A DNA stretch of 64,000 nt, taken from assembly GCA_965215165.1 (NCBI GenBank), contig CBDCCX010000006.1, forward strand, positions 524,181-588,180. Direction: 5' to 3'. The translations under genes and the position numbers were made by a program. Below are positions 4,901 through 63,618 of this stretch, one piece after another; position 1 is the stretch's first letter; each line of letters starts with the position of its first letter. The notes below the pieces were generated by a model that saw only the letters and a list, made by a program, of their open reading frames with translations, searched no databases and had not been told where the DNA came from. This stretch comes from Rhodothermales bacterium (lineage in GTDB: Bacteria; Bacteroidota; Rhodothermia; Rhodothermales; JANQRZ01).

Positions 4901-7900
4901 ATGTCCAGCGTTACCCTCCTGTCCTACGTGTCCGCTCCCGTGCGGGCCTTCCTCCTCACCCTCGGTCTGCTGCTCGCCCCCGGCGCGCTCGCAGCCACCA
5001 TCACGGTCACGACGCTCGCTGACGAGCTGAACACCGACGGCGACTGCTCCCTCCGCGAGGCCGTTCAGGCAGCGAACACCGACGCGGCCGTCGACGCCTG
5101 CCAAGCGGGCCAGGCCGGAGCCGACGACGTCGTCTTCTCCGCCGCCCTCGCCGGAAGCGGGGCCACCATCAACCTGGTGCTCCGCCGGATCAGCATTACG
5201 CAGCCCCTCACCGTAGACGGCACCATCGGCGTCGGCGGCGAGACCGTCACCGTGGACGGGGGCGGAAACGGCGGTGTCTTCGGCGCGACCGTGAACGCCG
5301 GGGCCGTTACGCTCCGCAACCTCACCGCGACGAACGGCCTCCGCACCCTAGGCGGCGCGATCCGTGGCCGAACCGGCACGACGCTCACGCTCGAGAACGT
5401 CACCGTCAGCAACAGCGTCACCCCGACGAGCGGCGGCGGGATCTACTTTCAGGGCGACACCCTCGTGCTGAGGTCGTGCACCGTGCAGGGCAACGAAGCC
5501 CGAGGCGACAACTCCACCCAAGGTGGCGGCGGCATCTACGTCGAGCGCGGCACAGTCGAGATCGAGGACACCATCATCGACATGAACGAAGCCTCGGGCG
5601 TGTCCGGCTCGGGCGGCGGGATCTTCGTGTTCGCCGGCACCGTCACCATCAACGGCTCGGCCATCAGCGCCAACACCGCGAGCCGCGCCGGCGGTGGTAT
5701 TGAGGTGGTGGACGGCGAGGTGTCGCTCGACGGGGTCGTCGTCGAAGCAAACGACGCCGGTCTGAACCCAGGCAACGGCGGCGGGCTCCACATCGGCGGC
5801 GGCACCGTGGCCCTCGACAGCAGCAGGGTCGCGAGCAACGTAGCCGTCGAAGGCGGCGGCCTGTGGTCGGCCAGCTCGCTCAGCCTCGATGCGACGACGG
5901 TCGAGCTGAACATCGCTACCGGCGACGACGCCATGCAGGGCGGCGGCGGGATCTACCTCGAAAGTGGCTCGCTCGCCGTTGACGGCTCGGTCATCGCCAC
6001 GAACCAGGCGACGGGCGTCTCCGGCTCCGGCGGCGGCGTGTTCATCCTCGCCGGCACCGTCACGTTCACCGGATCCGCCATCAGCGCGAATGCTGCTAGC
6101 CGCGCCGGCGGCGGCATCGAGATCGTCGACGGCGAGGTGTCGCTCGACGGCGTCACTGTTGAAGCAAACGACGCCGGGGTGAATCCCGGCAACGGCGGCG
6201 GCCTCCACATTGGCGGCGGCACGGTGGAGATCGACGGCGGCTCGTTCAACGCCAACACCGCCGTTGAAGGGGGCGGCCTGTGGTCGGCCGGAACGCTCAA
6301 CATCGAAGGCACCCTGCTTGCCGAGAACATCGCCAGCGGCAACGAGGCCGACCAGGGCGGCGGCGGGGTCTACGTCCAGGCTGGCACGCTCGACGTCGAC
6401 GACTCGGTCATCAGCACGAACCAGGCGACGGGCGTCTCCGGCTCCGGCGGCGGCGTGTTCATCCTCGCCGGCACCGTCACGTTCACCGGATCCGCCATCA
6501 GCGCGAATGCTGCTAGCCGCGCCGGCGGCGGCATTGAGATCGTGGAGGGGGCCCTCGCGGTGGTCGACTCCGACCTCGGCGAGAGCGGGGAGGGCGACGA
6601 CGCACTCGACGGCAACACGGCCACGACCAACCCCGGCAACGGCGGCGGCCTCCACGTCTCGGGCATGGCGGCCGTCACGTTCGAGGGCGGCACGGTCAAC
6701 GGCAACGGCGCGGCCCTCGAAGGGGGTGGCATCTGGAACCAGGCTGGCACGAAGGTCCGCATCACCGGCACCGAGATCGCTGGCAACGGCTCCGATGGCG
6801 CGGCGGCTGACGACGGCGGCGGTGGCATCTTCAACAACGGCGGCGAGATCGACCTGACCGACGTCACGCTGAGCGAAAACACCGCGAAGGGCGAAGCAGC
6901 CTCGGGCGGTGGCATTCTGACGCTCGGCGGGGTCGTGGTGATTGCGGGCGGCGAATTGGTCGGCAACGTCGCGCAGCGCGCCGGCGGCGGCATCGAGGTA
7001 GTCGACGGCGAAGTGACGCTGACCGACGTGGTGGTCTCGGCCAACGACGCGGGCTCGAACCCCGGCAACGGCGGCGGCCTCCACATCGGCGGCGGCACCG
7101 TCAGCATCGACAGCAGCACGGTCTCGGGCAACACCGCCGTCGAGGGCGGCGGCCTGTGGAACTCGGCCACCGGGACGCTCACCGTCCGAGTCAGCTCCGT
7201 GATGGACAACATGGCGACCACGACCGGTGGCGTCCATAACTCCGGCGATGGCGGCACCATCACCATCGAGCGGAGCACTGTCTCGGGCAACGTCGCCGAC
7301 GAAGGGGCCGGCGGCCTCTTCTCCGAGGGCGGCGCGCTCAGCCTCGCCAACAGCACGGTCTCCAGCAACCGAGGCGACATCGGCGGCGGGATCTGGGCCA
7401 CGGACGGGACGGTGATGCTCAACAGCGTCACCATCGCCCTCAACACGGCCTCCACGAACGGCGGCGGCGTGTCGAGCGCCCCCGACAACGAGTTCCGCTT
7501 CGTGAACACGCTCCTCGGCGACAACACCGCGCCGGAGAAGCCGGACTGTGCCGGCGTCCTCGTCTCGGAGGACTACAACCTCATCGAGGACCTGGGCGGC
7601 TGCACGCTCGACGGCGAGACGGAGAACGTCATCGAGGGCGTCGACCCGGGGATCGGCCCGCTCGCCGACAACGGCGGGCGCACGATGACGCACGCGCTGC
7701 TCGACAGCAGCCCGGCCCTCAGCGCCGGCCTCGCCATGCTCGCCACGGACCAGCGCGGGGCCGAGCGCGAGGAAGGCACGGCGGACATCGGCGCGTTCGA
7801 GTCCAGCGCGATGCCGTCGAGCAGCGAGGACGACCCGTCGGCGGTTGCAATGCCGAACGGCTACCTCCTCGGCTCGGCCTACCCGAACCCGCTCCGCGAC

Positions 7901-8122
7901 CGCGCGACGCTCCGCTTCGGCGTCCGCGAGGCGCAGCCGGTCGAGGTCGTGCTCTACGACGTGCTCGGCAAGCAGGTGGCCGTGCTCCACCGAGGCCCTC
8001 TCGCCGCCGGCTCGGTGCAGGAGGTGCAGATCGACGCCGGTAGCCTCGCCAGCGGCCTCTACTTCGTCCGCCTGACGGGGGACGAGGTGCGCGCCACGCG
8101 CCGCCTCTCGGTGGTCCGGTAG
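4901..8122 (+). CDS. CSLREA / choice-of-anchor Q beta-helix repeat protein with T9SS type A C-terminal sorting domain
   Basis: Signal peptide; DGDCSLREAVQAAN; many GGGI(Y/F) repeats; GPLADNGG-THAL-SPA-DQRG-DIGAFE; CTD AYPNP...YDVLGKQVAVL...SGLYFVRL. Confidence 0.9.
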   Translation: MSSVTLLSYVSAPVRAFLLTLGLLLAPGALAATITVTTLADELNTDGDCSLREAVQAANTDAAVDACQAGQAGADDVVFSAALAGSGATINLVLRRISITQPLTVDGTIGVGGETVTVDGGGNGGVFGATVNAGAVTLRNLTATNGLRTLGGAIRGRTGTTLTLENVTVSNSVTPTSGGGIYFQGDTLVLRSCTVQGNEARGDNSTQGGGGIYVERGTVEIEDTIIDMNEASGVSGSGGGIFVFAGTVTINGSAISANTASRAGGGIEVVDGEVSLDGVVVEANDAGLNPGNGGGLHIGGGTVALDSSRVASNVAVEGGGLWSASSLSLDATTVELNIATGDDAMQGGGGIYLESGSLAVDGSVIATNQATGVSGSGGGVFILAGTVTFTGSAISANAASRAGGGIEIVDGEVSLDGVTVEANDAGVNPGNGGGLHIGGGTVEIDGGSFNANTAVEGGGLWSAGTLNIEGTLLAENIASGNEADQGGGGVYVQAGTLDVDDSVISTNQATGVSGSGGGVFILAGTVTFTGSAISANAASRAGGGIEIVEGALAVVDSDLGESGEGDDALDGNTATTNPGNGGGLHVSGMAAVTFEGGTVNGNGAALEGGGIWNQAGTKVRITGTEIAGNGSDGAAADDGGGGIFNNGGEIDLTDVTLSENTAKGEAASGGGILTLGGVVVIAGGELVGNVAQRAGGGIEVVDGEVTLTDVVVSANDAGSNPGNGGGLHIGGGTVSIDSSTVSGNTAVEGGGLWNSATGTLTVRVSSVMDNMATTTGGVHNSGDGGTITIERSTVSGNVADEGAGGLFSEGGALSLANSTVSSNRGDIGGGIWATDGTVMLNSVTIALNTASTNGGGVSSAPDNEFRFVNTLLGDNTAPEKPDCAGVLVSEDYNLIEDLGGCTLDGETENVIEGVDPGIGPLADNGGRTMTHALLDSSPALSAGLAMLATDQRGAEREEGTADIGAFESSAMPSSSEDDPSAVAMPNGYLLGSAYPNPLRDRATLRFGVREAQPVEVVLYDVLGKQVAVLHRGPLAAGSVQEVQIDAGSLASGLYFVRLTGDEVRATRRLSVVR
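5521..6545 (+). repeat. Intragenic tandem repeat, 417-bp (139-aa) period, about 2.5 copies
   Basis: Equivalent GGGGIY codons at 5521, 5938 and 6355; a block of about 115 bp starting GAACCAGGCGACGGGCGTCTCC is identical at 6001 and 6418. Confidence 0.9.
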
Positions 8123-9604: not shown

Positions 9605-10960
9605 ATGTCTAACACACTACGTGTGCTCTTCGTGGCGGCGCTCTTCACCGCGCTCAGCCCGTTCACCCTGGCCCAGAACCGCACGGCGGCTCCCAACCCC
9701 TCCGTCGACCGGGCCATCCCGTCGTCGGTCGAGGTGCTCTCCGAGCGCGGTGGAGCCGACGTCTTCACCACCCGCGCGGCCTTCGTCGGCGAGTGCGGTG
9801 CGAACCTCTCGACCGAGACCTTCGAGGAGGCCAACATCGCCTCGGGCGAGTTCGACGTCGTCGGCGCTCCGCTTCCGCCCGAGGACGGCGTGATCTTCCC
9901 CGCCGGCTCCATCGAGGACGGCCTCACGCTCACCACGACGACCGTCTCCGGCGCCGGCGATGACCTCTTCGTCTCCGGCGAGGGCTTCTTCGGTGCCCCG
10001 TCGGTCCAGGTTGGCAACAACCGGAACACGGACGACTTGTTCGCCAACTTCAGCCCGGCCGTCGACTGCGCCGGCTACGACGTGGACCTCAACAACGCCG
10101 GTACGGCCACGACGATCGAGGCGCGCGACGCCTCGGGCAACGTGCTCGGCTCGGCGATCATCACGGGCTTCGACACGCAGTTCGTCGGGTTCAAGTCGGA
10201 CGGCGCGGCCATCGCCTCGATCGTGGCGCTCGCCTCGGTCTCGGTTGAGTTCGTCGACATCGACAACGTCTCCTTCGGCGACGTCGACGGTGGTGGCGAT
10301 CCCATCGAGATCACCGCAGGCCCGGGCGCACAGTCGGTGGCACGCGGCGGCCGGGCGTCGTTCACCTACATGGTGACCAACAACCTGCCCAACTCCGTCT
10401 CCGGTGTCGTGTTCTACGAGGTCTTCCGCGGCCCCAACCGCGTCGTCGGTCCGGTCCAGGTCCAGACCGGCACCGTGCCGGGCAACTCGAGCACGCCGCA
10501 GCTCACGTTCGGCGTGAATGTGCCGGGCGGTGCCCCGCTCGGTACCTACCGCGTGGCGATCAGCGCGGGTCCGAACACCAGCAACGCCCTCGCTACGGCC
10601 AACGTGAACGTCACGGTGACGGCTGCCCGCGTGGCCGGCTCGGCGACGACGTGGTCGCTCGCGGACGCCGCGCCGTGGCCGACGCTCGAGGCCGCTGCCC
10701 GCACCAGCGAGATCGGGGCCTACCCGAACCCGTTCGCGCGCAGCACCGAGATCGGCTTCTCGCTCGAGCAGGCCGCTAAGGTGTCCCTCACCGTCTACGA
10801 CGTGCGCGGCCGCGAGGTCGCTGTGCTCGCCGACGGCACGATGGAAGCCGGCCAGCACAGCATCACGTTCGACGCGGCGAGCCTGCCGAGTGGCGTCTAC
10901 GTCTACCGTCTGACGACGGGGGCGCAGGTCGAGACCGGCCGGATCACGCTGGTGAAGTAA
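9605..10960 (+). CDS. Secreted protein with Ig-like domain and T9SS type A CTD
   Basis: Signal peptide MSNTLRVLFVAALFTALSPFTLAQ; CTD AYPNPF...YDVRGREVAVL...SGVYVYRL. Confidence 0.85.
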   Translation: MSNTLRVLFVAALFTALSPFTLAQNRTAAPNPSVDRAIPSSVEVLSERGGADVFTTRAAFVGECGANLSTETFEEANIASGEFDVVGAPLPPEDGVIFPAGSIEDGLTLTTTTVSGAGDDLFVSGEGFFGAPSVQVGNNRNTDDLFANFSPAVDCAGYDVDLNNAGTATTIEARDASGNVLGSAIITGFDTQFVGFKSDGAAIASIVALASVSVEFVDIDNVSFGDVDGGGDPIEITAGPGAQSVARGGRASFTYMVTNNLPNSVSGVVFYEVFRGPNRVVGPVQVQTGTVPGNSSTPQLTFGVNVPGGAPLGTYRVAISAGPNTSNALATANVNVTVTAARVAGSATTWSLADAAPWPTLEAAARTSEIGAYPNPFARSTEIGFSLEQAAKVSLTVYDVRGREVAVLADGTMEAGQHSITFDAASLPSGVYVYRLTTGAQVETGRITLVK

Positions 10961-12765: not shown

Positions 12766-15081
12766 ATGTCCCGCCTGCTTCGCCTCGCCCTCCTCGTCTG
12801 TTTCGCCACCCCGCTCGCCGCGCAACCGAGCCTCACGCTCGACCTGCTCGGCACCTACGCCACCGGCCTCTTCGACGAAAGCGCGGCCGAGATCGTCGAT
12901 TACGACCCCGCCTCGCAGCGGCTCTTCTTCGTCAACGCCGCCGACGCGACCGTCGTGGCGCTCGACATCGCGGACCCGGCCAGCCCGGTCGAGGCCTTCA
13001 CGATCGACGCCTCCGCGTTCGGCGGTGGGGCCAACAGCGTGGCGGTCCAGAACGGGATCGTGGCCGTGGCCGTGGAGGCGGAGGTGAAGCAGGAGCCGGG
13101 CCAGGTCGTCTTCTTCGACGCGGACGGAAGGCTGCTCGGTGCGGTTCCGGTGGGTGCGCTGCCGGACGGCCTCGCGTTCTCCGCCTCGGGCCGGTATCTC
13201 GTCGTGGCAAACGAGGGCGAGCCGAACGACGACTACACCGTCGACCCCGAGGGTTCCGTCACGGTCATCGACCTGAGCGGCGGGGTGGCGGGCGCGAGCG
13301 TGGCGACGGCGAGCTTCGAGGCCTTCAACGAGGGAGGCCCGCGCTTCGGCGAAATCGCGGCGTCCGGCGTCCGCATCTTTGGTCCCGGCGCGAGCGTGGC
13401 GCAGGACCTCGAGCCGGAGTTCGTCACCGTCGAGGGCGATGAGACGGCCTTCGTGACGCTCCAGGAGAACAACGGCCTGGCCGAGATCGACCTCGCCACA
13501 GCGACCGTCACGTTCGTCTACGGCTTCGGGCTGAAGAACCACAACATCCCCGAGAACGCGCTCGACGCCTCGAACCGCGACGATGGCATCAACATCCGGC
13601 CGTGGCCGGTCGTCGGGCTGTTCCAGCCGGACGCGGTGGCGAGCTACCAGGCCGACGGGCTAACCTATCTCGTGACCGCCAACGAGGGCGACGCGCGCGA
13701 CTACGACGGCTTCAGCGAGGAGGAGCGCGTCGGGGACCTCGACCTCGACCCGGCGGCCTTTCCCGATGCCGCGACGTTGCAGCAGGACGAGAACCTCGGC
13801 CGTCTCAAGATCACCACCACCGAGGGGGACCCCGACGGCGACGGCGACTACGACCGGCTGTTCGCCTACGGCGCGCGCTCGTTCAGCATCTTCCTGCGGG
13901 GCAACGCCCTCGTGCTGCGCCCCGTCTTCGACAGCGGCGACGACTTCGAGCGGATCACCGCCAGCCGCCTGCCGGACTTCTTCAACTCGGACAACGACGA
14001 CAACGACTCGTTCGACAGCCGCAGCGACGACAAGGGGCCGGAGCCGGAAGGCGTCGCCCTCGGCGAGGTCGGCGGCCGGACCTACGCCTTCATCGGCCTC
14101 GAGCGGATCGGCGGGGTGATGGTGTACGACATCACCGACCCCAAGGCCCCGCGCTTCGTGGATTACGTCACCAACCGCGATTTCTCCGGCGACCCGGAGG
14201 CCGGCACGGCGGGCGACCTCGGCCCCGAGGGCCTCCTGTTCGTCCCGGCCGCCGACAGCCCGACCGGGCAGCCGCTGCTCGTCGTCGCCAACGAGGTCAG
14301 CGGGACGGTCTCGATCTACGGCTTGGCGGCAGCCGGCGGCGTGGCGATCGAGATCGTGCCGGACGGGCCGCCCGTCGTGGTTCCGGCGGAGGGTGGCCGC
14401 TTCGCCTTCACGGCCACGCTCACCAACACGACCGGCGAGGCGCAGACCGTCGAGGCGTGGACCGAGGCGACGTTCCCTGACGGCTCGGTCAAGCAGCCCG
14501 ACGGGCGCAACGACCTGCTCGGGCCCGTCGCCGTCACGCTCGCGGCCGGGCAGACGCTCACGCGCTCGCTCGTGCAGGAGGTGCCCGGTTCGATCCCGGC
14601 AGGCGAGTACGTCTACACCGCGCTGCTCGGCGACTTCCCCGACGCGCCGGTCAGCCGCAGCCGCTTCTCGGCGGTGAAACGACCTGGCGAGCGCGGCGCA
14701 CCGACCGTCACAGCGTGGCGCCTCCTCGATGCCGAGACCGGCTCGCCCATCGAGGCCGGGGCGCATTGGAAGGCAGCGGCGGACGCTCCGGCCGCAGCCT
14801 CGGCGGCGGGGGTGCCCTCGGCGTTCGCGCTCTCGGCGGCCTACCCGAACCCGTTCCGGCAGGCAACGGTCCTCACGGTCGACCTGCCCCAACCCTCGGC
14901 GGTGACACTCGCGGTCTACGACGTGCTCGGCCGCCGGGTGGCAGTGCTCGTCGACGGCGCGCTGGAGGCGGGCTCGCACCGCGTCGCCTTCGACGGGCGC
15001 GACCTGCCGAGCGGGGTGTACCTGGTGCGGGCCGAGGCCGAGGGCTTCGCCGCGACGCAGCGCGTGACCCTCGTGCGCTAG
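12766..15081 (+). CDS. Choice-of-anchor I beta-propeller protein with Ig-like domain and T9SS CTD
   Basis: ANEGEP, DLEPE, TLQENN, ANEGDARDY, GARSFSI, RSDDKGPEPEG, GLERIGG, DLGPEG, VANEVSGT; CTD AYPNPF. Confidence 0.88.
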   Translation: MSRLLRLALLVCFATPLAAQPSLTLDLLGTYATGLFDESAAEIVDYDPASQRLFFVNAADATVVALDIADPASPVEAFTIDASAFGGGANSVAVQNGIVAVAVEAEVKQEPGQVVFFDADGRLLGAVPVGALPDGLAFSASGRYLVVANEGEPNDDYTVDPEGSVTVIDLSGGVAGASVATASFEAFNEGGPRFGEIAASGVRIFGPGASVAQDLEPEFVTVEGDETAFVTLQENNGLAEIDLATATVTFVYGFGLKNHNIPENALDASNRDDGINIRPWPVVGLFQPDAVASYQADGLTYLVTANEGDARDYDGFSEEERVGDLDLDPAAFPDAATLQQDENLGRLKITTTEGDPDGDGDYDRLFAYGARSFSIFLRGNALVLRPVFDSGDDFERITASRLPDFFNSDNDDNDSFDSRSDDKGPEPEGVALGEVGGRTYAFIGLERIGGVMVYDITDPKAPRFVDYVTNRDFSGDPEAGTAGDLGPEGLLFVPAADSPTGQPLLVVANEVSGTVSIYGLAAAGGVAIEIVPDGPPVVVPAEGGRFAFTATLTNTTGEAQTVEAWTEATFPDGSVKQPDGRNDLLGPVAVTLAAGQTLTRSLVQEVPGSIPAGEYVYTALLGDFPDAPVSRSRFSAVKRPGERGAPTVTAWRLLDAETGSPIEAGAHWKAAADAPAAASAAGVPSAFALSAAYPNPFRQATVLTVDLPQPSAVTLAVYDVLGRRVAVLVDGALEAGSHRVAFDGRDLPSGVYLVRAEAEGFAATQRVTLVR

Positions 15082-25437: not shown

Positions 25438-26175
25438 ATGCCCCTCCCGTTCCCCGACCTACCGCCCGACGCTGAACTCCAAGCGAAGGCGCTCACCGTC
25501 CACGAGCGCTTGTGCGAGGCGTACGACTGCCCCATCGCGTTCTTCTCCGACAAGGACCCGCTCAGCGAGCTGGTCTCGGCGCTCCTCTCGCACCGCACCA
25601 AGAACCGCGACTCCGGCCGCGCCTACACCCAGCTCCGCGACCGCTTCCCAACGTGGGAGGCCGTCCGCGACGCGCCGACGGCCGAGGTCGAAGCCGCGAT
25701 CTCGCCGTGCACGTGGCCCGAGCAGAAAGCCCCGCGCCTCCAGGCCGTGCTCCGCACCATCACCGAGGCGCGCGGCGGCGACCTGCACCTCGACTTCCTC
25801 GCCGGCCTCGCGGTGCCCGAGGCGCGGGCGTGGCTCGAGCAGATCAAGGGCGTCGGCCCGAAGACGAGCGCGGCGACGCTCCTCTTCAGCACGCTCCGCC
25901 GCCCGGCGATGCCGGTCGACAGCCACCACCACCGCGTCGCCCAACGCCTCGGGCTGATCCCGGAGGCGATGCCGGTCGGTCCGGCGCACGACGCGCTCGC
26001 GGCTTTTGTCCCGCCGGAGTGGGACGCCCAGGCCGTCTACGACCACCACGAGGTGTTCATGCTCCACGGCCAGAAGTGCTGCTTCTGGAAGAACCCGGCG
26101 TGCGGCCGCTGCCCCGTGCTCGACCTCTGCCCGACGGGGCAGGCGCGGCTCAGCGGGGCGCGCGGCGGCGGATGA
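25438..26175 (+). CDS. Endonuclease III family (HhH-GPD) Fe-S DNA glycosylase
   Basis: HhH IKGVGPKT, PVDSH, Fe-S motif CCFWKNPACGRCPVLDLC. Confidence 0.9.
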   Translation: MPLPFPDLPPDAELQAKALTVHERLCEAYDCPIAFFSDKDPLSELVSALLSHRTKNRDSGRAYTQLRDRFPTWEAVRDAPTAEVEAAISPCTWPEQKAPRLQAVLRTITEARGGDLHLDFLAGLAVPEARAWLEQIKGVGPKTSAATLLFSTLRRPAMPVDSHHHRVAQRLGLIPEAMPVGPAHDALAAFVPPEWDAQAVYDHHEVFMLHGQKCCFWKNPACGRCPVLDLCPTGQARLSGARGGG

Positions 26176-26320
26176 TTGCGGCGGCGCTGACGAGGACCGC
26201 GCCGAGCACGACTGAGGCCAGGGCGAAGCGCCCGACCTGCACGGCTTGTTGAAGCGCGTGGCCGAGGAAGAGGACCCCGCCGACGGCGGCGACGAGAGCG
26301 ATGAGTCGGTTCGTATCCAT
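26150..26320 (-). CDS. Putative 56-aa two-TM small membrane protein (not in the ORF track)
   Basis: MDTNRLIALVAAVGGVLFLGHALQQAVQVGRFALASVVLGAVLVSAAAIIRRRAPR*; GC3-rich codons; overlaps the endonuclease III 3' end by 26 nt. Confidence 0.6.
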   Translation of the reverse strand: MDTNRLIALVAAVGGVLFLGHALQQAVQVGRFALASVVLGAVLVSAAAIIRRRAPR

Positions 26321-26326
26321 CGCTCA

Positions 26327-26486
26327 GAGACTGTTTGGATGTGCAGCGAGAAGGCGAGAGCGAGCGAGAAACGGCGGGCCGAGGCGCGCGAAGAAGGCGA
26401 TGCGCCAGCATCGGCGATGCAGCGCCACGCGGGAGCGCCGCTTCGTAGCCGCTCGCAGCCTACGGTTGGGAATCCCAAACAGTCTC
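26327..26486. mobile_element. 160-bp MITE-like element, copy A
   Basis: Perfect 12-bp TIR GAGACTGTTTGG/CCAAACAGTCTC; TCA directly flanks both ends (26324-26326, 26487-26489); central hairpin CGATGC-GCCA-GCATCG. Confidence 0.85.
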
Positions 26487-26915
26487 TCAGACGATGCCGG
26501 AGGCGGGGAGGTGCTTCCGGTCCTCCCACGCGCGGTAGCGCTCGAGCTCGGCGTGGAGCGTCCGCAGCACGTAGCCGAGCACCGCCGCGTCGTCGAGGTA
26601 GCCGATCACCGGGATGAAGTCCGGGATCAGGTCGAGCGGGTTGAGGAAGTAGAGGACCGCGGCGACGATCAGCACGATAGCCTTGAGCGGGACGCGGCGG
26701 TACTCGCCGCCGAGCCACGCCCGCACCAAGCGCAGCAGCACCGGCAGGTCGGTGCGGATCTGCCCGATCTCGTCGCTGTGCTCGGCGATCTTGTCGTAGG
26801 CGTCGCGGACGACTTTGCGGACGTGCTTCGGGCTGCGCGTGATGCGCTCGGCCTGGGCGCGGAAACGTTCGAAGCCGAGTGGCGGGTCGGTCGAGGGGGG
26901 CAGCGTGTCGGGCAT
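26487..26915 (-). CDS. YkvA/DUF1232 family protein
   Basis: AVLYFLNPLDLIPDFIPVIGYLDDAAVL signature. Confidence 0.92.
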   Translation of the reverse strand: MPDTLPPSTDPPLGFERFRAQAERITRSPKHVRKVVRDAYDKIAEHSDEIGQIRTDLPVLLRLVRAWLGGEYRRVPLKAIVLIVAAVLYFLNPLDLIPDFIPVIGYLDDAAVLGYVLRTLHAELERYRAWEDRKHLPASGIV

Positions 26916-32862: not shown

Positions 32863-32920
32863 GGCGTGTTGTGTGCTCCGCCTCGCGGGAGTACCTAGTC
32901 TCACGCACCACGTTTCACGA
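32859..32920. repeat. Heptamer-periodic inverted-arm element (GTG/CAC type) between convergent genes
   Basis: GTGAGGC GTGTTGT GTGCTCC, spacer, CTCACGC ACCACGT TTCACGA. Confidence 0.6.
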
Positions 32921-35900
32921 CCCGCCGTTGCGCTGCTGGAGGAGGTCGAAGTAGCGCTTGATCATCTCCTGGTAGTCCGGCGCGTAGCCGCTCTCGAGCG
33001 CGCGGATCAGGTCGCGCCGGAGGCGGTCGACCTCCTCGGTCTCGGGGAGCGCGTCCGGCGTGTCGGGCGGGCGGTCCTGGCCGGTCTGGCTCTCGCGCTC
33101 GCGCTTCTTGCCGCGCTGGTTGATCGACTCCCGCGCCTCCAGGAGCCGGGTGAGGATGTTCTCCTGGCGCTCGCGCAGCTCGCGGTCGATCTGGCCGCTC
33201 TCTAGGCGGCGGGCGGCCTCCTCCATCTGCTCGGCGATGCGCTGGAGCTGGCTCTTGCCCTGCCCGTCGAGCGCCGGGTTCTGGGACATCTCCTCAAGCT
33301 GCTGGCGAAGGGCCTCCTGCTGCTGGCGGAGCTGCTGCATCCGGCCCTGCTGGTCTTGGGAGAGGCGCTGGCCCTGGGCGTCGTTGAGCATCTGCTGAAT
33401 CTGCTGATTCATCTGCTGCTGCTGGCCGGACATCTGCTGGAGCTGCTGCATCATCTGCTGCATCGACGGCGAGCCGCTGCCCTGGCCGGAGCTGGGGTTC
33501 TGCATCTGGTCCATCAGGTCCGAGAGCAGGAGGGCGAGGTCGTTCAGGCTCGTCATCGACGCCTTCTGGTGGCCGGCGGCCTGGGGCACGCGCCGCTCGG
33601 CGAGCTCCTCGACCGACGCGCCCATCTCGCGGAGCGCCTCGCCGGTGCGGCGCTGGATCTCGACGTCCATCTGCGGGATCTCGCGGGCGAGGCTGCGGAG
33701 CGAGTCGCTGACGGTCGCGAGGCCGGCCGAGAGCTCGACCTGCTGCGCGGCGTTCGGGCGGATGGTCGGGCTGTCCGACGGTTGGCCGGCGGTCTCGGCG
33801 CGGAGCGACTCCTGCTCGTAGGAGAGCGTCAGCACGTCGTCGAGCGCGCGGCGGAGGCCGGCGAGGTTGGCCTGCTGCTGCTGGCCCGACATCTGCTGCT
33901 GCATCTGCTGCATCTGCTCGGCCATCTGCTGCATCTGCTGCTGCATCTGCTGCTGGCCCTGCTGCGCGTCCTGGAGCTCGTTCTGCCGCATCTGCTCGGA
34001 GTTCTGCTGCTGCTGCTGCTGCATCTGCTGCATCTGCTCGGCCGCGTCCTGCATCTGCTCGGCGGCGTCCTCCGCGCTCTTCATGCCCTCTAGCTGCTCC
34101 TGCATCTCGCGCATCATCTCCTCGAGCGCCTCGGCCTCCTGGCGGGCCTGGTCCTGCTGCTCAGCTAAGCGGTCCTGCTCGGCCTGCGACTCCTCGGCGC
34201 TGAGCTCGCCGTTCTCCTGCTGCTGCTCCAGCTCCTCGGTCTGCTCCTGCAAGGCGCGCTCCTGCTCGGCCAGGGCCTCGGCGCGCTTCGCCGCCTCGTC
34301 GAGCTTCTGGGCGACCTGCATCTTCTCCAACAGCTCCAGCGCCCGCTCGATCCGCTCGCGGAACTGCTCCTCGTTGAACTCGAACTCCTCCATCGCCTCC
34401 ATCATCTGGGGCAGGTCGAGGTTCTCCATCGCCTCCTGCAATTTCTGCAGCGCCTCGCGCATCTCGGGCGTGGCGATCTCCTCCATCACGCGCTGCATCT
34501 CTTGGTACTGCCGCAGCGTCTCCTCGCTCACCAAGTCGTTCTCCTGCATCTGCTCCAGCAGCTCCTGCATCTGCTCTGCGCCCTGCTCGACCTGCTCCTC
34601 GAGCTGCTGCTGGCGCTCCTGCAGGTTCTGGAGCTGGCGCTGGTCCTCCCAGTCGGCGTCCTGCTTGCGGCGCAGCTCGTCGCGCAGCTCCTCGAACTGC
34701 TCGCGCGTCTCGGCCTCGTCGCGGAGCAGCTCCTCGAGTCCCTCCTCGGTGCCGTCCTGCGCGTCGTCGAGCTGCTCGTACTGCTCGGCGAGCGACGGGA
34801 AGCGGAGCGTGAACGTCGGGGTCCGGGCCGATTTGTAGCCGGCCACGGCGTCGTTGTCCCAGACTTGCAGGTAGTATTCCACCACATCGCCGGGCGCGAG
34901 GCCGGGGGCGACGGAGCGGAGGAACCACTCGTGCGCTACGTCCTGGTCCAGCAAGCGCGGCTGCACGGAGAGGTCGAGCGATTCGAAGTCGGCCTCGGCG
35001 GCGTCGGTCCCAGGCTCGCCTGCGACGCGCCAGTAGAGCCGGAGCCGGGCGAAGCCGAAGTCGTCGGTGACGCGGGCGGCGACGCGGGTCTGGAGCGCCT
35101 CGGTCAGGTCCACGTCCGCGCCCGGCGCGAGCAGGCTGATCTGGGGCGGCGCGTCGGAGAGGAGCTGGAGCGTGTAGGCGATGGGGTCGGCGTTCTCGGT
35201 GCCGTTCGCGCCGTGCAGACGCAGGCGGTAGCTCCCCTCGCGGCGGAGCCGGAAGGAGCCGGTCGCGGCCGTGCCGTCGAGGGTGAGCGGGACGGCCTCG
35301 CCGTCGTCGAAGACGACGAAGGCCGAGTCGACCGGCGCGCCGCCGACCTCGGCCTCGACCGAGACGGTCGTCCCCGGCAGCCCGGTCACGTCGCCGACGT
35401 TGGGGGCGAGGCGCTGCGGGGCGAGGCGCGTGTAGCGCGGCGGCGTCGCCGTGATGCGGAGCGCCTGGACCGCCGGCCGCACCACGACCGTCGCCGTAAA
35501 CCAATCGGTCTCGACCCCCGAGGCCTCGACGCGGTAGCGGAGCGACTCGCGGAGGTTCGTCGCCGTGTGGCGGAAGGTGCCCGACGAGTCGGCGAGCAGG
35601 CGGACGGCGGTCGTGCGGTCCTCGCCGGGCCGGCCGAGCCAGAGCGTGGCCTCGCGCGGCAGCGCCCGGCCCCGCGCCCGGACCTCGACGGTGAGGTCGC
35701 TGCCCCGGACGATCTCCGCGTCGCCCGGCGCGACGAGCAGGCTGAACGGCGCGGGCGGCGCGAAGGTCTCGGTCGGGGAGAAGAGGCGGTGGACGGCCCC
35801 GGTGAACGCCGCCGGCGCGAGCAGCCCGAAGAGCGCCAGGCCCAGGATGGGCACCGCCGCGACCGGCGCGGTCCGCCGGGCCGGGCCGAGGTCCTCGACC

Positions 35901-36349
35901 CGTTCGAACGGCACCGGCTCGATCTCGCGCCCGAGCATCTGCACCGCGCCGTCGAGCAGCGGAGCCGGGGCGTCGGAGGCGCGCCCGTCGGCCAGGTCGA
36001 GGAGGTTCGTCAGGCGGTCCGAGACCTCGGGGAAGCGCCGCCCGATGCGCGCGGCGAGGGCTTGGTCGCCGAGGCCGGGGAGCACCCCGAAGTAGACCAG
36101 CAGCGGCCGGACCACGAAGACGCCGACGAGGCCGAGCGCGGCGAGCAGGAAGGCGACGTAGAACAGCAGCCGCGTGGCCGTCCCCATCCACAGCCCCGCC
36201 TCGGCGGCGGCCCCGATCCCGAGCGCGGCGGCGAGCACGCCGAGCGTGAGCGCCGCGCCGAAGAGCAGGTCGGCGGTCAGCACGCGGCGGCGCGCGCGGG
36301 CGAGGCGGGCGCGCAAGGCGTCGAGAAGCTGTCGGCTCTGCTCACCCAT
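32915..36349 (-). CDS. DUF4175 family membrane-anchored protein with Gln/Glu-rich coiled coil
   Basis: N-terminal TM helices, ISRRFPEVSDRL-like segment, Ig-like region (YYLQVWDND), long Q/E/M-rich helical tail ending GYAPDYQEMIKRYF. Confidence 0.82.
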   Translation of the reverse strand: MGEQSRQLLDALRARLARARRRVLTADLLFGAALTLGVLAAALGIGAAAEAGLWMGTATRLLFYVAFLLAALGLVGVFVVRPLLVYFGVLPGLGDQALAARIGRRFPEVSDRLTNLLDLADGRASDAPAPLLDGAVQMLGREIEPVPFERVEDLGPARRTAPVAAVPILGLALFGLLAPAAFTGAVHRLFSPTETFAPPAPFSLLVAPGDAEIVRGSDLTVEVRARGRALPREATLWLGRPGEDRTTAVRLLADSSGTFRHTATNLRESLRYRVEASGVETDWFTATVVVRPAVQALRITATPPRYTRLAPQRLAPNVGDVTGLPGTTVSVEAEVGGAPVDSAFVVFDDGEAVPLTLDGTAATGSFRLRREGSYRLRLHGANGTENADPIAYTLQLLSDAPPQISLLAPGADVDLTEALQTRVAARVTDDFGFARLRLYWRVAGEPGTDAAEADFESLDLSVQPRLLDQDVAHEWFLRSVAPGLAPGDVVEYYLQVWDNDAVAGYKSARTPTFTLRFPSLAEQYEQLDDAQDGTEEGLEELLRDEAETREQFEELRDELRRKQDADWEDQRQLQNLQERQQQLEEQVEQGAEQMQELLEQMQENDLVSEETLRQYQEMQRVMEEIATPEMREALQKLQEAMENLDLPQMMEAMEEFEFNEEQFRERIERALELLEKMQVAQKLDEAAKRAEALAEQERALQEQTEELEQQQENGELSAEESQAEQDRLAEQQDQARQEAEALEEMMREMQEQLEGMKSAEDAAEQMQDAAEQMQQMQQQQQQNSEQMRQNELQDAQQGQQQMQQQMQQMAEQMQQMQQQMSGQQQQANLAGLRRALDDVLTLSYEQESLRAETAGQPSDSPTIRPNAAQQVELSAGLATVSDSLRSLAREIPQMDVEIQRRTGEALREMGASVEELAERRVPQAAGHQKASMTSLNDLALLLSDLMDQMQNPSSGQGSGSPSMQQMMQQLQQMSGQQQQMNQQIQQMLNDAQGQRLSQDQQGRMQQLRQQQEALRQQLEEMSQNPALDGQGKSQLQRIAEQMEEAARRLESGQIDRELRERQENILTRLLEARESINQRGKKRERESQTGQDRPPDTPDALPETEEVDRLRRDLIRALESGYAPDYQEMIKRYFDLLQQRNGGS

Positions 36350-40544: not shown

Positions 40545-41357
40545 TCACCCGGCCGGGTCGCCGAGCGCGTCGCGCAGCGCTTCGGCCGCGCGGCGGGCCG
40601 CCTCCGCGAAGTCGTCGCCGCCCGAGGCGTAGAGGATGCCTCGGCTGCTGTTGACCAGCAGCGGCCCGGAGCCGGCGGCCGCCACCACCGCCGCCGCATC
40701 GCCCCCCTGCGCGCCGACGCCGGGGACGAGGAACGGCGCGTCGGGATAGGCGGACCTCAGTTCGGCCAGCAGCCCCGGCCGCGTCGCGCCCACGACGAAT
40801 CCGGCCTCGCCGGGCCGGTCGGCCGCGGCCTCGACCGCGAGCCGCGCCACGCGCCGGTAGACCGGCTCGCCCTCGGCGACCAGGTCCTGCACCTCCGCGC
40901 CGCTCGGGTTCGAGGTGGCGACGAGCACGAACGCGCACCGGCCCTCCTGTTCGAGAAAGGGGACCACCGAGTCCGTGCCCATGTACGGCGCGACCGTCAC
41001 CGCATCGGCGGCCACGCCCTCATAGAAGGCGTGAGCGTACTTCCGCGCCGTATTCCCGATGTCGCCCCGCTTGGCGTCGGCGATCACGAGGCGGCCGTCG
41101 GGCACGGCGGCGACGGTCTCCTCGAAGACCCGCCACCCCTCCGCTCCGAGGGCTTCGTAGAAGGCGAGGTTCGGTTTGAAGGCGCAGGCGACCTCCGCCG
41201 TGGCCTCGATGACGGCGCGGTTGAACGCGAGCATGGCCTCGGCTGCGGGCCGGTCGCGGAACGGGCGCGGCAGCCGCGCCGGGTCGGGGTCGAGGCCGAC
41301 GCAGACGCGGGAGCGCGTGGCGGCCTGAGCGGCGCGGAGTCGGTCGGTGAAGGACAC
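40545..41357 (-). CDS. pyrF: Orotidine-5'-phosphate decarboxylase
   Basis: VCVGLDPD, FKPNLAFYEALG, DAKRGDIGNTA, TSNPS, LVPGVGAQGG, NSSRGILYAS. Confidence 0.96.
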   Translation of the reverse strand: MSFTDRLRAAQAATRSRVCVGLDPDPARLPRPFRDRPAAEAMLAFNRAVIEATAEVACAFKPNLAFYEALGAEGWRVFEETVAAVPDGRLVIADAKRGDIGNTARKYAHAFYEGVAADAVTVAPYMGTDSVVPFLEQEGRCAFVLVATSNPSGAEVQDLVAEGEPVYRRVARLAVEAAADRPGEAGFVVGATRPGLLAELRSAYPDAPFLVPGVGAQGGDAAAVVAAAGSGPLLVNSSRGILYASGGDDFAEAARRAAEALRDALGDPAG

Positions 41358-41375
41358 GGGCGAGGGTGGAGGTTA

Positions 41376-41535
41376 GGCTGTGTCCGGTGATTCAGACCGA
41401 AGGCGAGCCTGAGCACGCCGCGATCTCAGCCAGGCGTGCGAGAAGCCAGATGCCGTAGCATCGGGCGATGAGCACAACGCGGCTGCGGCCGTCGAGGGCC
41501 GGGCGCAGGCCGTGGTGGATTCACCGGACATGGCC
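41376..41535. mobile_element. 160-bp MITE-like element, copy B
   Basis: TIR GGCTGTGTCCGGTGATTC vs GGCCATGTCCGGTGAATC (15/18); TTA flanks both ends (41373-41375, 41536-41538); hairpin GATGC-CGTA-GCATC exactly central. Confidence 0.82.
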
Positions 41536-42321
41536 TTAGAGCTTGATGAGTTCCGCTTGTTCGTAGCGGCGGTCGGCTCCGGCCACGAGGTCGGCCTCGC
41601 GGTCGCGGCGCTTGAGCAGGCCGGGCAGGCCGCGGTTTTCCCACAGCCGCTTCATCGCCCGGATCTGCTCGGCGATGCCGCCGAGGTCGCCGTTCCGCAC
41701 GAGCGCTTCGAGGGCTTTCATCTCGCGGCGTCGCGCGCCCGACTTGCTCGCGCCCCGGTTGTAGACCAGCGACAGCAGCGCTGCCTGGGCGTCGGCCGGA
41801 AGTTCCTCGATGCCCGGATAGGCGCGGCGGGTGAGCCGGGCGAAGCGCGGCAGCGTCGAGGTGTAGAACACGACCTTCGCCGCCTCGAACGGCACCGTGA
41901 CGTGACTGACGCCGTCGCGGGCCTGGTTGGCCGCCTCGCCCTTCCTCCCCACGATGGTCAGCAGGCTGGCGAGGTCGGCGTCGGTGATCCGCCCGCGCCA
42001 GTCTTTCTCGATCTGCCCAGCGGGGGTGTGCCCGAGGTCGTACCCGATGCCGACTGTGAGGCCGCTCTCGCCGCCGGGCCAGACGGGGTGCGTGAGGCTC
42101 CGCCGGTAGAACGCCTCCGACGAGATCTCCTCGCGGACGATCAGGCTCAGCCCGCGCTGCGACACGACGAGGTTGGCCGGCTCCTCGTCGAGCGGTCCGA
42201 GGCAGCTCGTCAGCACGGCTTCGAGCCGGGTGAGCGAGACGGGGCCGAGGAGGCCGTCAGCCACGACGCCAAGGCGGCGCTGCACGGCCTGGATGCGCTC
42301 CTTGATGGTCAGGGTGCTCAT
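41536..42321 (-). CDS. Peptidoglycan-binding, pesticin/lysozyme-like muramidase
   Basis: N-terminal QRRLGVVADGLLGPVS (PG-binding); VWPGGESGLTVGIGYDLG; ALLSLVYNRG; GLLKRRDRE; no signal peptide. Confidence 0.8.
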   Translation of the reverse strand: MSTLTIKERIQAVQRRLGVVADGLLGPVSLTRLEAVLTSCLGPLDEEPANLVVSQRGLSLIVREEISSEAFYRRSLTHPVWPGGESGLTVGIGYDLGHTPAGQIEKDWRGRITDADLASLLTIVGRKGEAANQARDGVSHVTVPFEAAKVVFYTSTLPRFARLTRRAYPGIEELPADAQAALLSLVYNRGASKSGARRREMKALEALVRNGDLGGIAEQIRAMKRLWENRGLPGLLKRRDREADLVAGADRRYEQAELIKL

Positions 42322-63200: not shown

Positions 63201-63618
63201 AGCCGAGGACCTAGCGTTCATGGCCGACGAGATCGCAGCGAAGGCTGGGATCGAAGCGGTTCAGGGCGAAGGTGGAGGCGCGGCAGGCGAAGGGAAAACA
63301 AGCGCCACGGCGAGCAAGACTGACGGCACAGCGCTCCCGACGGCGTTTGCGCTCCGACCGGCCTACCCCAACCCGACGGCGCGAGCGGCAACGGTGCCCT
63401 TCGACTTGCCGGAGGAAGCTGAGGTCCGGGTCGTGGTCTACGACTTGCTCGGGCGCGCAGTGGCGGTGTTGGCTGAGGGTCTTCACGAGGCGGGCCGTCA
63501 CGAGGCGGTCTTCGAGGGCAGGCGGATGAGTGCGGGGGTCTACGTCGTCCGGGCAGAGATCGCGCCGGTGGGTGGTGCGCTACGGGCCTTTACGCAGAAG
63601 CTCACGCTGCTCCGCTAA
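60284..63618 (+). pseudogene. S8 (subtilisin) peptidase + beta-helix + helical region + T9SS CTD, interrupted by two frameshifts
   Basis: Triad motifs AITDS, HHGPSVAG, GTSYASP and GSGN in the 60228 frame up to GYGRINA (61916); CTD-bearing part (AYPNP...YDLLGRAVAVL) is in the 61777 frame from W at 61918; ATG 60284 is out of frame across the G11 tract. Confidence 0.75.
60325..60335 (+). repeat. G11 homopolymer in the signal-peptide-coding region
   Basis: AATAA-G11-CCAATC; confirmed by translations of three overlapping ORFs in the track. Confidence 0.95.

Follow-up and report, generated by a model that had tools for sequence, protein, structure and literature searches.

The IS1031-type insertion sequences of the IS5 family, together with their MITEs, are the bacterial counterpart of the plant Tourist and PIF-Harbinger elements. 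One of the two elements described here, copy A, resembles them in its 12-nt termini, its 3-bp T-N-A duplication and its palindromic C-TNA-G target, but the interior of the MITE is unrelated beyond about 16 nt, the studied genome is without such a transposase, and neither exact occupancy of stop codons nor an orientation linked to transcription was found in the description of that family. The other element, copy B, recalls the IS630 (Tc1/mariner-like) or Stowaway-like MITEs through the [C/T]TA...TA[G/A] flanks of its siblings; it differs in being flanked by TTA on both sides and in having a core that also occurs on the ends of another transposase family. Stop codons and orientation both go unmentioned in a 2024 review of prokaryotic MITEs (PMC10969869), and a search of the literature on bacterial MITEs that target stop codons returned no direct precedent.

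The hairpin repeats BOX, RUP and SPRITE of pneumococci occur preferentially 3' of genes and in convergent gaps, an enrichment at 3' ends that has been read as insertion tolerance, and the BOX repeat encodes the stop codon of 36 pneumococcal CDSs (Croucher et al. 2011, PMC3049150). Where BOX supplies a new stop at the extreme 3' end, in the Rhodothermales MITEs the duplication itself is the stop and the protein is unchanged, and the link to stop codons exists, unlike that of BOX, because of the TNA/CTAG target motif. The ERIC elements of enterobacteria and the Correia elements of Neisseria are likewise MITE hairpins co-transcribed in operons, and according to the account of De Gregorio 2005 reviewed in PMC2229807 the effect of ERIC on upstream mRNA stability depends on orientation. 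Their sequences are unrelated to those of the present family, which is without an Rfam match.

Two elements at stop codons

The window, that is the whole stretch of 64,000 nucleotides that was analysed (C6:524181-588180), belongs to a 3.67 Mb genome of 69.6% GC that is 86% coding. It holds copy A and copy B (Table 1), both of them MITEs, non-autonomous hairpin transposons of a 72-copy superfamily. The junctions read cgcTCA-GAGACTGTTTGG...CCAAACAGTCTC-TCAgac for copy A and aggTTA-GGCTGTGTCCGG...CCGGACATGGCC-TTAgag for copy B. A sequence-only reading of this DNA had proposed that at both copies the duplicated target is a stop codon, and this was borne out by the reading of the junctions, by the listing of open reading frames and by a codon-usage gene caller. 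It had also seen correctly that the two copies are co-oriented, each directly 3' of a minus-strand gene and with a co-oriented gene beyond the far end; the latter starts 6 nt past copy A (the 56-aa ORF) and 18 nt past copy B (pyrF). Its further claim, that copy B duplicates TTA, stands as far as the TTA/TTA flanks are concerned, but the siblings of copy B duplicate only the TA in [C/T]TA[G/A], and the 3-bp repeat of copy B may be TA with one extra T. In either case the reconstructed empty site would read ggaggTTAgagc, in which the stop codon would have overlapped the target. The two copies are of different mobilisation classes, copy A being of the IS5-family type with TNA duplication. Within the conserved cores, copy A has a covarying apical hairpin (GCGATGC-GCCA-GCATCGGC) and copy B the hairpin CCAGATGC-CGTA-GCATCGGG.

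Table 1. Positions in the window of the two elements, their flanks and cores, and the adjoining genes
Feature	Position	Strand	Remarks
MITE copy A, 160 bp	26327..26486	+ (model orientation +)	TIRs GAGACTGTTTGG / CCAAACAGTCTC; IS5-family (IS1031-like) end class
Left TCA of copy A's target duplication	26324..26326		3 nt to start codon of 56-aa ORF
Right TCA of copy A's duplication	26487..26489	-	TGA stop codon of DUF1232 gene
Conserved core of copy A	26380..26450	+	core HMM match, genome 550560-550630
DUF1232 (YkvA-like) gene, 142 aa	26487..26915	-	Pfam PF06803, 55 bits; own gene call; stop = duplication
56-aa hydrophobic ORF downstream of copy A	26150..26320	-	kept beside ykvA in congener G004, where copy A is absent
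MITE copy B, 160 bp	41376..41535	+ (model orientation +)	TIRs GGCTGTGTCCGGTGA / TCACCGGACATGGCC; TA/CTAG end class
Left TTA flank of copy B	41373..41375		15 nt to pyrF start
Right TTA flank of copy B	41536..41538	-	TAA stop codon of lysozyme-like gene
Conserved core of copy B	41431..41492	+	core HMM match, genome 565611-565672
Lysozyme/muramidase-like gene, 261 aa	41536..42321	-	Pfam PF00959 (Phage_lysozyme), 25 bits vs cut-off 22.3
pyrF (OMP decarboxylase), co-oriented, downstream of copy B	40545..41357	-	Pfam PF00215 (OMPdecase), 105 bits

The minus strand of copy B also holds a 52-aa open reading frame (41373-41531), whose ATG is made by a mismatch in the right TIR; it starts 4 nt after the lysozyme-like stop and ends on the far TTA (TAA), 15 nt before pyrF. 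This frame is not conserved in the other copies. A conserved ORF across the element was considered and rejected, as open frames are commoner on the pyrimidine-rich strand and the start codon is not consistent.

Other repeats were seen in the window. Several large genes for secreted proteins carry at their ends a 68-nt repeat (7947-8014, 10788-10855, 14909-14976 and 63431-63498) that encodes ...VYDVLGR.VAVL..., a motif typical of T9SS C-terminal sorting domains. A large ORF contains, at 5504-7403, four tandem copies of 417-459 nt, and a long low-complexity region of the CTGCTGCAT type occupies 33370-34665 in a 1144-aa ORF (gene 32915-36349, minus strand).

The element family and its end classes

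Iterative nhmmer searches gave 78 hits, of which 72 elements were kept after their ends had been set by TIR and flank (TNA or TA). They are about 160 bp long (mostly 157-198 bp, range 58-335), contain no conserved ORF, and include internally deleted, nested, tandem and chimeric members. In the curated copies 10-16 of the 16 end bases are complementary. Two end classes can be told apart. The TNA class has the ends GAG[A/G]CTG... and GGGCCTATCC... (GGGCCT... class), with the same T-N-A triplet on both sides. The ends of the TA class are GGCTGTGTC..., GG[G/T]CGTGTGGAC..., GGCCTTGTTCGG... and GTGCTGCGACAC..., with [C/T]TA to the left and TA[G/A] to the right, that is, a TA duplication within CTAG or TTAG. 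The 3-nt flanks are identical in 32/72 copies, and the other copies of the TA class fit a duplication of TA. C at -1 and G at +1 are preferred by both classes, in stop and non-stop copies alike, giving the palindromic C-TNA-G.

All subfamilies, including those with unrelated ends, have in common a core of about 70 nt with an apical hairpin, and this core was found in the genus, in the family and in one further family of the order. Its hairpin has undergone compensatory changes, with AU 21, UA 5 and GC 4 at one pair and UA 18, AU 6 and GC 6 at another.

Arrangements of several elements were also encountered. Back-to-back pairs sharing one TNA lie at C6:2205152-2205505, 3148317-3148650 and 1510873-1511195, and the element at 3148497-3148650 combines a GTGCTGCG end with a GGGCCTATCC end, a chimera that suggests recombination through the common core. 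At C6:379429-379619 the left end of one element (TCA GTGCTGTGACAC) is present in three tandem copies. A second, unrelated family of small elements of about 130-170 bp has the TIR TACCAAATCCGGTT, for which there were 17 hits in the genome (both ends, at most 2 mismatches), among them C6:989185-989519 and, for example, 1818082-1818236, 1829055-1829197 and 1974534-1974698; one of its copies is nested within a member of the 72-copy MITE family.

Candidate mobilising transposases and an empty site in relatives

A MITE without a transposase would move when an enzyme supplied in trans recognises its ends. The studied genome gave 0 matches to the PF01609 transposase and none above cut-off to the IS630-family model NF033545, and autonomous insertion sequences (IS) with ends of the family's types are present in relatives (loci L055, L056, L060, L103 and L120). 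Those of 869-888 bp have the ends GAG[A/G]CTGTTTGG (GAGACTGTTTGGGGAA or GAGGCTGTTTGGTAAC) and TGA or TCA duplications, and encode an IS5-family transposase of the NF033580 (transpos_IS5_3) type. The terminus of copy A, GAGACTGTTTGG, equals the ends of the 875-bp IS at L056 at 12/12 positions; that IS is flanked by TCA, and its transposase scores 220 bits on NF033580. The similarity between IS and MITE stops after about 16 nt, and the interiors are unrelated. By its ends, which are those of an IS1031-like IS5-family IS with a 3-bp T-N-A duplication and preferred flanks C-TNA-G, copy A is classed as an IS5-type ('Tourist-like') passenger.

The congener G001 carries three copies of a 1,235-bp IS630-family IS with the ends GTGCTGTGTCAC, which are near-identical to the GTGCTG[C/T]G... 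ends of MITEs and match the end of copy B at 9/12 positions. No exact match was found in the relatives for a partner IS with GGCTGTGTCC ends. Copy B, with ends of the class that duplicates TA in CTAG or TTAG, would most likely be mobilised by an IS630-family IS and is thus most likely an IS630-type ('Stowaway-like') passenger. Also in G001, an IS with GAGGCTGACTATGAA ends adjoins pyrF, and at L124 (G001:C15, ~493-494 kb) an IS630-family IS is directly flanked by two MITEs of different end classes, which suggests that TA sites beside element ends are re-used.

An empty site is available for copy A. Its flanks, when joined, correspond to one continuous stretch in the congener G004, where the element is absent and 10 nt separate the start of the small ORF from the stop of ykvA (TCA on the plus strand). 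The other relatives have neither copy A nor its synteny. For copy B no orthologous empty site occurs in the relatives, which keep pyrF without the lysozyme-like gene.

Stop-codon occupancy

A gene ends exactly at the junction in 42/72 elements (58%), and in three of the elements convergent genes end at both junctions. The stop codon at the junction is the flanking triplet or TA plus the element's first G, and in one case T plus GA; the 45 gene ends concerned comprise 26 TAG, 11 TGA and 8 TAA. Genes were called with our own codon-usage caller trained on this genome, and ten junction genes were checked against Pfam and found to be real, with full-length domains. This agrees with the expectation from the sequence-only reading that ORFs survive insertion undamaged, the stop being provided by the duplicate on the gene's side. 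The same reading had named a tabulation of the flanks of all genomic copies as a check, and a lack of stop-codon or orientation bias in the other copies as its refutation; the tabulation gave 42/72 copies at stops and an orientation of 30:9, so that the reading was supported and not refuted.

Taking all non-coding candidate sites as the null, availability predicts only 10-30% of copies at stops (p 2e-5 to 9e-17). For the TNA class the observed share was 19/42, against 10.1% for all TNA sites (p=5e-9) and 17.1% for C-TNA-G sites (p=2e-5); for the TA class it was 23/30, against 11.0% for all TA sites (p=9e-17) and 30.2% for CTAG sites (p=2e-7). Convergent gaps alone, which have no promoters, gave 7/8 versus 0.20-0.28 and 9/11 versus 0.25-0.53. 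Given that a gap is occupied, 39 of 68 copies were at stops against 28.6 expected (z=4.7); this null raises the expectation, and much of the stop effect is thus due to very short gaps in which the stop is the sole candidate site. The earlier argument that stops attract insertions through the scarcity of TNA sites does not hold genome-wide, where non-coding TNA sites number 13,191 and TNA stops 1,494, and is retained mainly for such short gaps.

In the genome as a whole, our calls gave 1348 TGA, 1156 TAG and 381 TAA stops. The 40% share of TAG is unusually high at 70% GC, and C-TAG stops make up 17% of all CTAG sites.

The ends of the two window copies differ in sequence yet stay complementary, which could resemble the covariation of a stem, and one might therefore think of structured-RNA genes whose end stems mimic TIRs, or of matches to stops that arose by chance. 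Such a reading has next to no probability: it is refuted by the genome-wide p values just given, by the transposase-bearing IS with the same termini in relatives and by the empty site in G004, and the identical or TA-compatible flanks and the internally deleted, nested and chimeric copies speak against it as well.

It may also be asked whether the transposases themselves prefer stops, be it by recognising a longer motif or by some coupling to where translated DNA ends, with orientation being set at insertion. Both classes exceed their motif-matched nulls 2.6-fold, an excess is seen also in convergent gaps, and local site choice beside existing duplications is strong (2205152/2205331 and 3148317/3148497). 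Against this, the palindromic C-TNA-G flanks are alike in stop and non-stop copies, three full-length IS copies lie 14-260 nt from the nearest stop with none on one, and one special preference would have to be shared by two unrelated families of transposase. The young family of G001, in which nearest-copy identity is 98% (86% in the studied genome, G000), is likewise close to what CTAG availability offers, as would be expected of insertions not yet exposed to selection, with 13/29 copies at stops (45%) where local CTAG sites would predict 33% (p=0.13). Its orientation is 7:6 for copies at stops and 8:4 over co-directional contexts, counts that cannot separate 1:1 from 3:1. Active targeting is accordingly considered improbable.

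A further genome, G015, had 6/14 copies at stops, and within G000 nearest-copy identity, used as a proxy of age, did not differ between stop and non-stop copies. With a baseline of about one third from CTAG availability, the higher share and the orientation bias of the older G000 family would fit, if weakly, a filtering after insertion; the contrast between old (G000) and young (G001) copies crosses genomes and subfamilies and is statistically weak.

Orientation and RNA folding

The asymmetric core served to define element orientation. Compared with the gene that ends at the junction, 30 elements are opposite and 9 the same (p=0.001), and across all co-directional contexts the ratio is 33:11. 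An orientation linked to replication was rejected: the count was 37:35, and the bias is present for genes of both replication strands. The model strand is purine-rich, with a GC skew of +0.12 in 71/72 copies, and folds better as RNA in 65/72 copies (-87 versus -74 kcal/mol). From the 30:9 orientation and this strand asymmetry it follows that the mRNA of the upstream gene usually has the pyrimidine-rich, weaker hairpin. Where the next co-oriented gene starts at most 30 nt past the far end, 9 of the 10 stop-junction copies are opposite and 1 is the same, and where it starts at most 18 nt past it all 8 are opposite. Whole elements fold far better than shuffled sequences (z -3.5 and -5.5).

These features raise the question of a domesticated RNA element, in which a transcribed hairpin would be useful at gene ends, where it might stabilise the 3' end, offer RNases a processing site, attenuate transcription or act as a stop-start relay at the hairpin base, and in which the orientation and the covarying core would have been selected for that role. 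An orientation that follows transcription and not replication, its strictness where the next gene is close, the folding in excess of shuffles, the core pairs kept by compensatory change (AU 21 / UA 5 / GC 4) and the recurrence of the same core in subfamilies with unrelated ends are all points in its favour, and there are precedents in ERIC, whose mRNA effects depend on orientation, and in the Correia elements, which RNase III cleaves (PMC2229807, PMC3049150). The best-folding strand, however, is usually antisense to the upstream gene, opposite to the prediction of selection for mRNA structure; 30/72 copies lie off stops, and 9 are in divergent gaps. Copy A is absent from the same locus in relatives with no obvious compensation, and in a palindrome compensatory changes can also arise at the DNA level. 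The sequence-only reading had suggested that the elements could tune downstream expression; scans for sigma-70-like promoters and for intrinsic terminators (a GC-rich hairpin followed by a U tract; 0 sites) were empty at both copies. Rfam had 0 matches in the window at gathering score, a permissive search reaching only chance level (E 0.3-0.8) at both copies, and when the flanks of the core hairpin were inspected by eye the defining motifs of hammerhead and other small-ribozyme cores were not matched. A domesticated RNA element is thus an unlikely, if conceivable, explanation.

A more specific proposal, which we regard as rather doubtful, is that the elements, beyond being tolerated at stops, were co-opted as RNA modules between cistrons or at 3' ends. 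The covarying core would then owe its spread to two or more unrelated transposase families, and copies would have been kept only in the orientation that places the upstream stop (the first copy of the duplication) beside a downstream start 1-18 nt past the second copy. If this were true, the arrangement would permit processing or stabilisation, or also re-initiation, across the base of the hairpin.

A probable role of target motif and selection

The explanation we favour, with a probability of roughly 0.7, is that the target motif together with purifying selection accounts for the excess at stop codons and for the orientation bias. Any stop codon can in principle be a target, since TAA and TGA fit T-N-A and a TAG preceded by C makes CTAG. 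Target duplication, or the restoration of TAG from TA and the first G of the element, leaves the gene with its in-frame stop and the protein unchanged. Insertions elsewhere in a genome that is 86% coding would split genes, promoters or terminators and be purged. Through this purging the survivors would pile up on stops, including the stop-to-start junctions within operons. Orientation would come under the same filter, with survival mainly of those copies that place the pyrimidine-rich, less tightly folding strand in the upstream transcript. The anatomy of the elements, their target duplications, the matching IS in relatives, the empty site and the excesses in stop-codon occupancy and orientation are shown by the data; that selection, and not active targeting, lies behind the excess is inferred, as is the reason why one orientation would be better tolerated. 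Two observations sit less easily with a target motif plus purifying selection: the excess remains in convergent gaps that are free of promoters, so that avoidance of promoters is not the whole filter, and the conserved covarying core and the strand-asymmetric folding hint at a function beyond pure parasitism.

Significance

The family offers a clean and quantifiable case of a transposon target motif interacting with the genetic code. Where a genome is GC-rich and densely packed with genes, its three stop codons would serve as safe landing pads for elements that seek T-N-A or CTAG, and hairpins would thereby reach gene ends and operon junctions with precision and with the proteins unaltered, which would explain why these repeats have the appearance of designed intercistronic elements. 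For annotation it means that the stop codon of many genes belongs to a mobile element, and that the element's first base can turn TAA into TAG. The 72 natural insertions, in two orientations, provide material on how a 160-nt hairpin bears on termination, mRNA decay and translational coupling in Rhodothermales.
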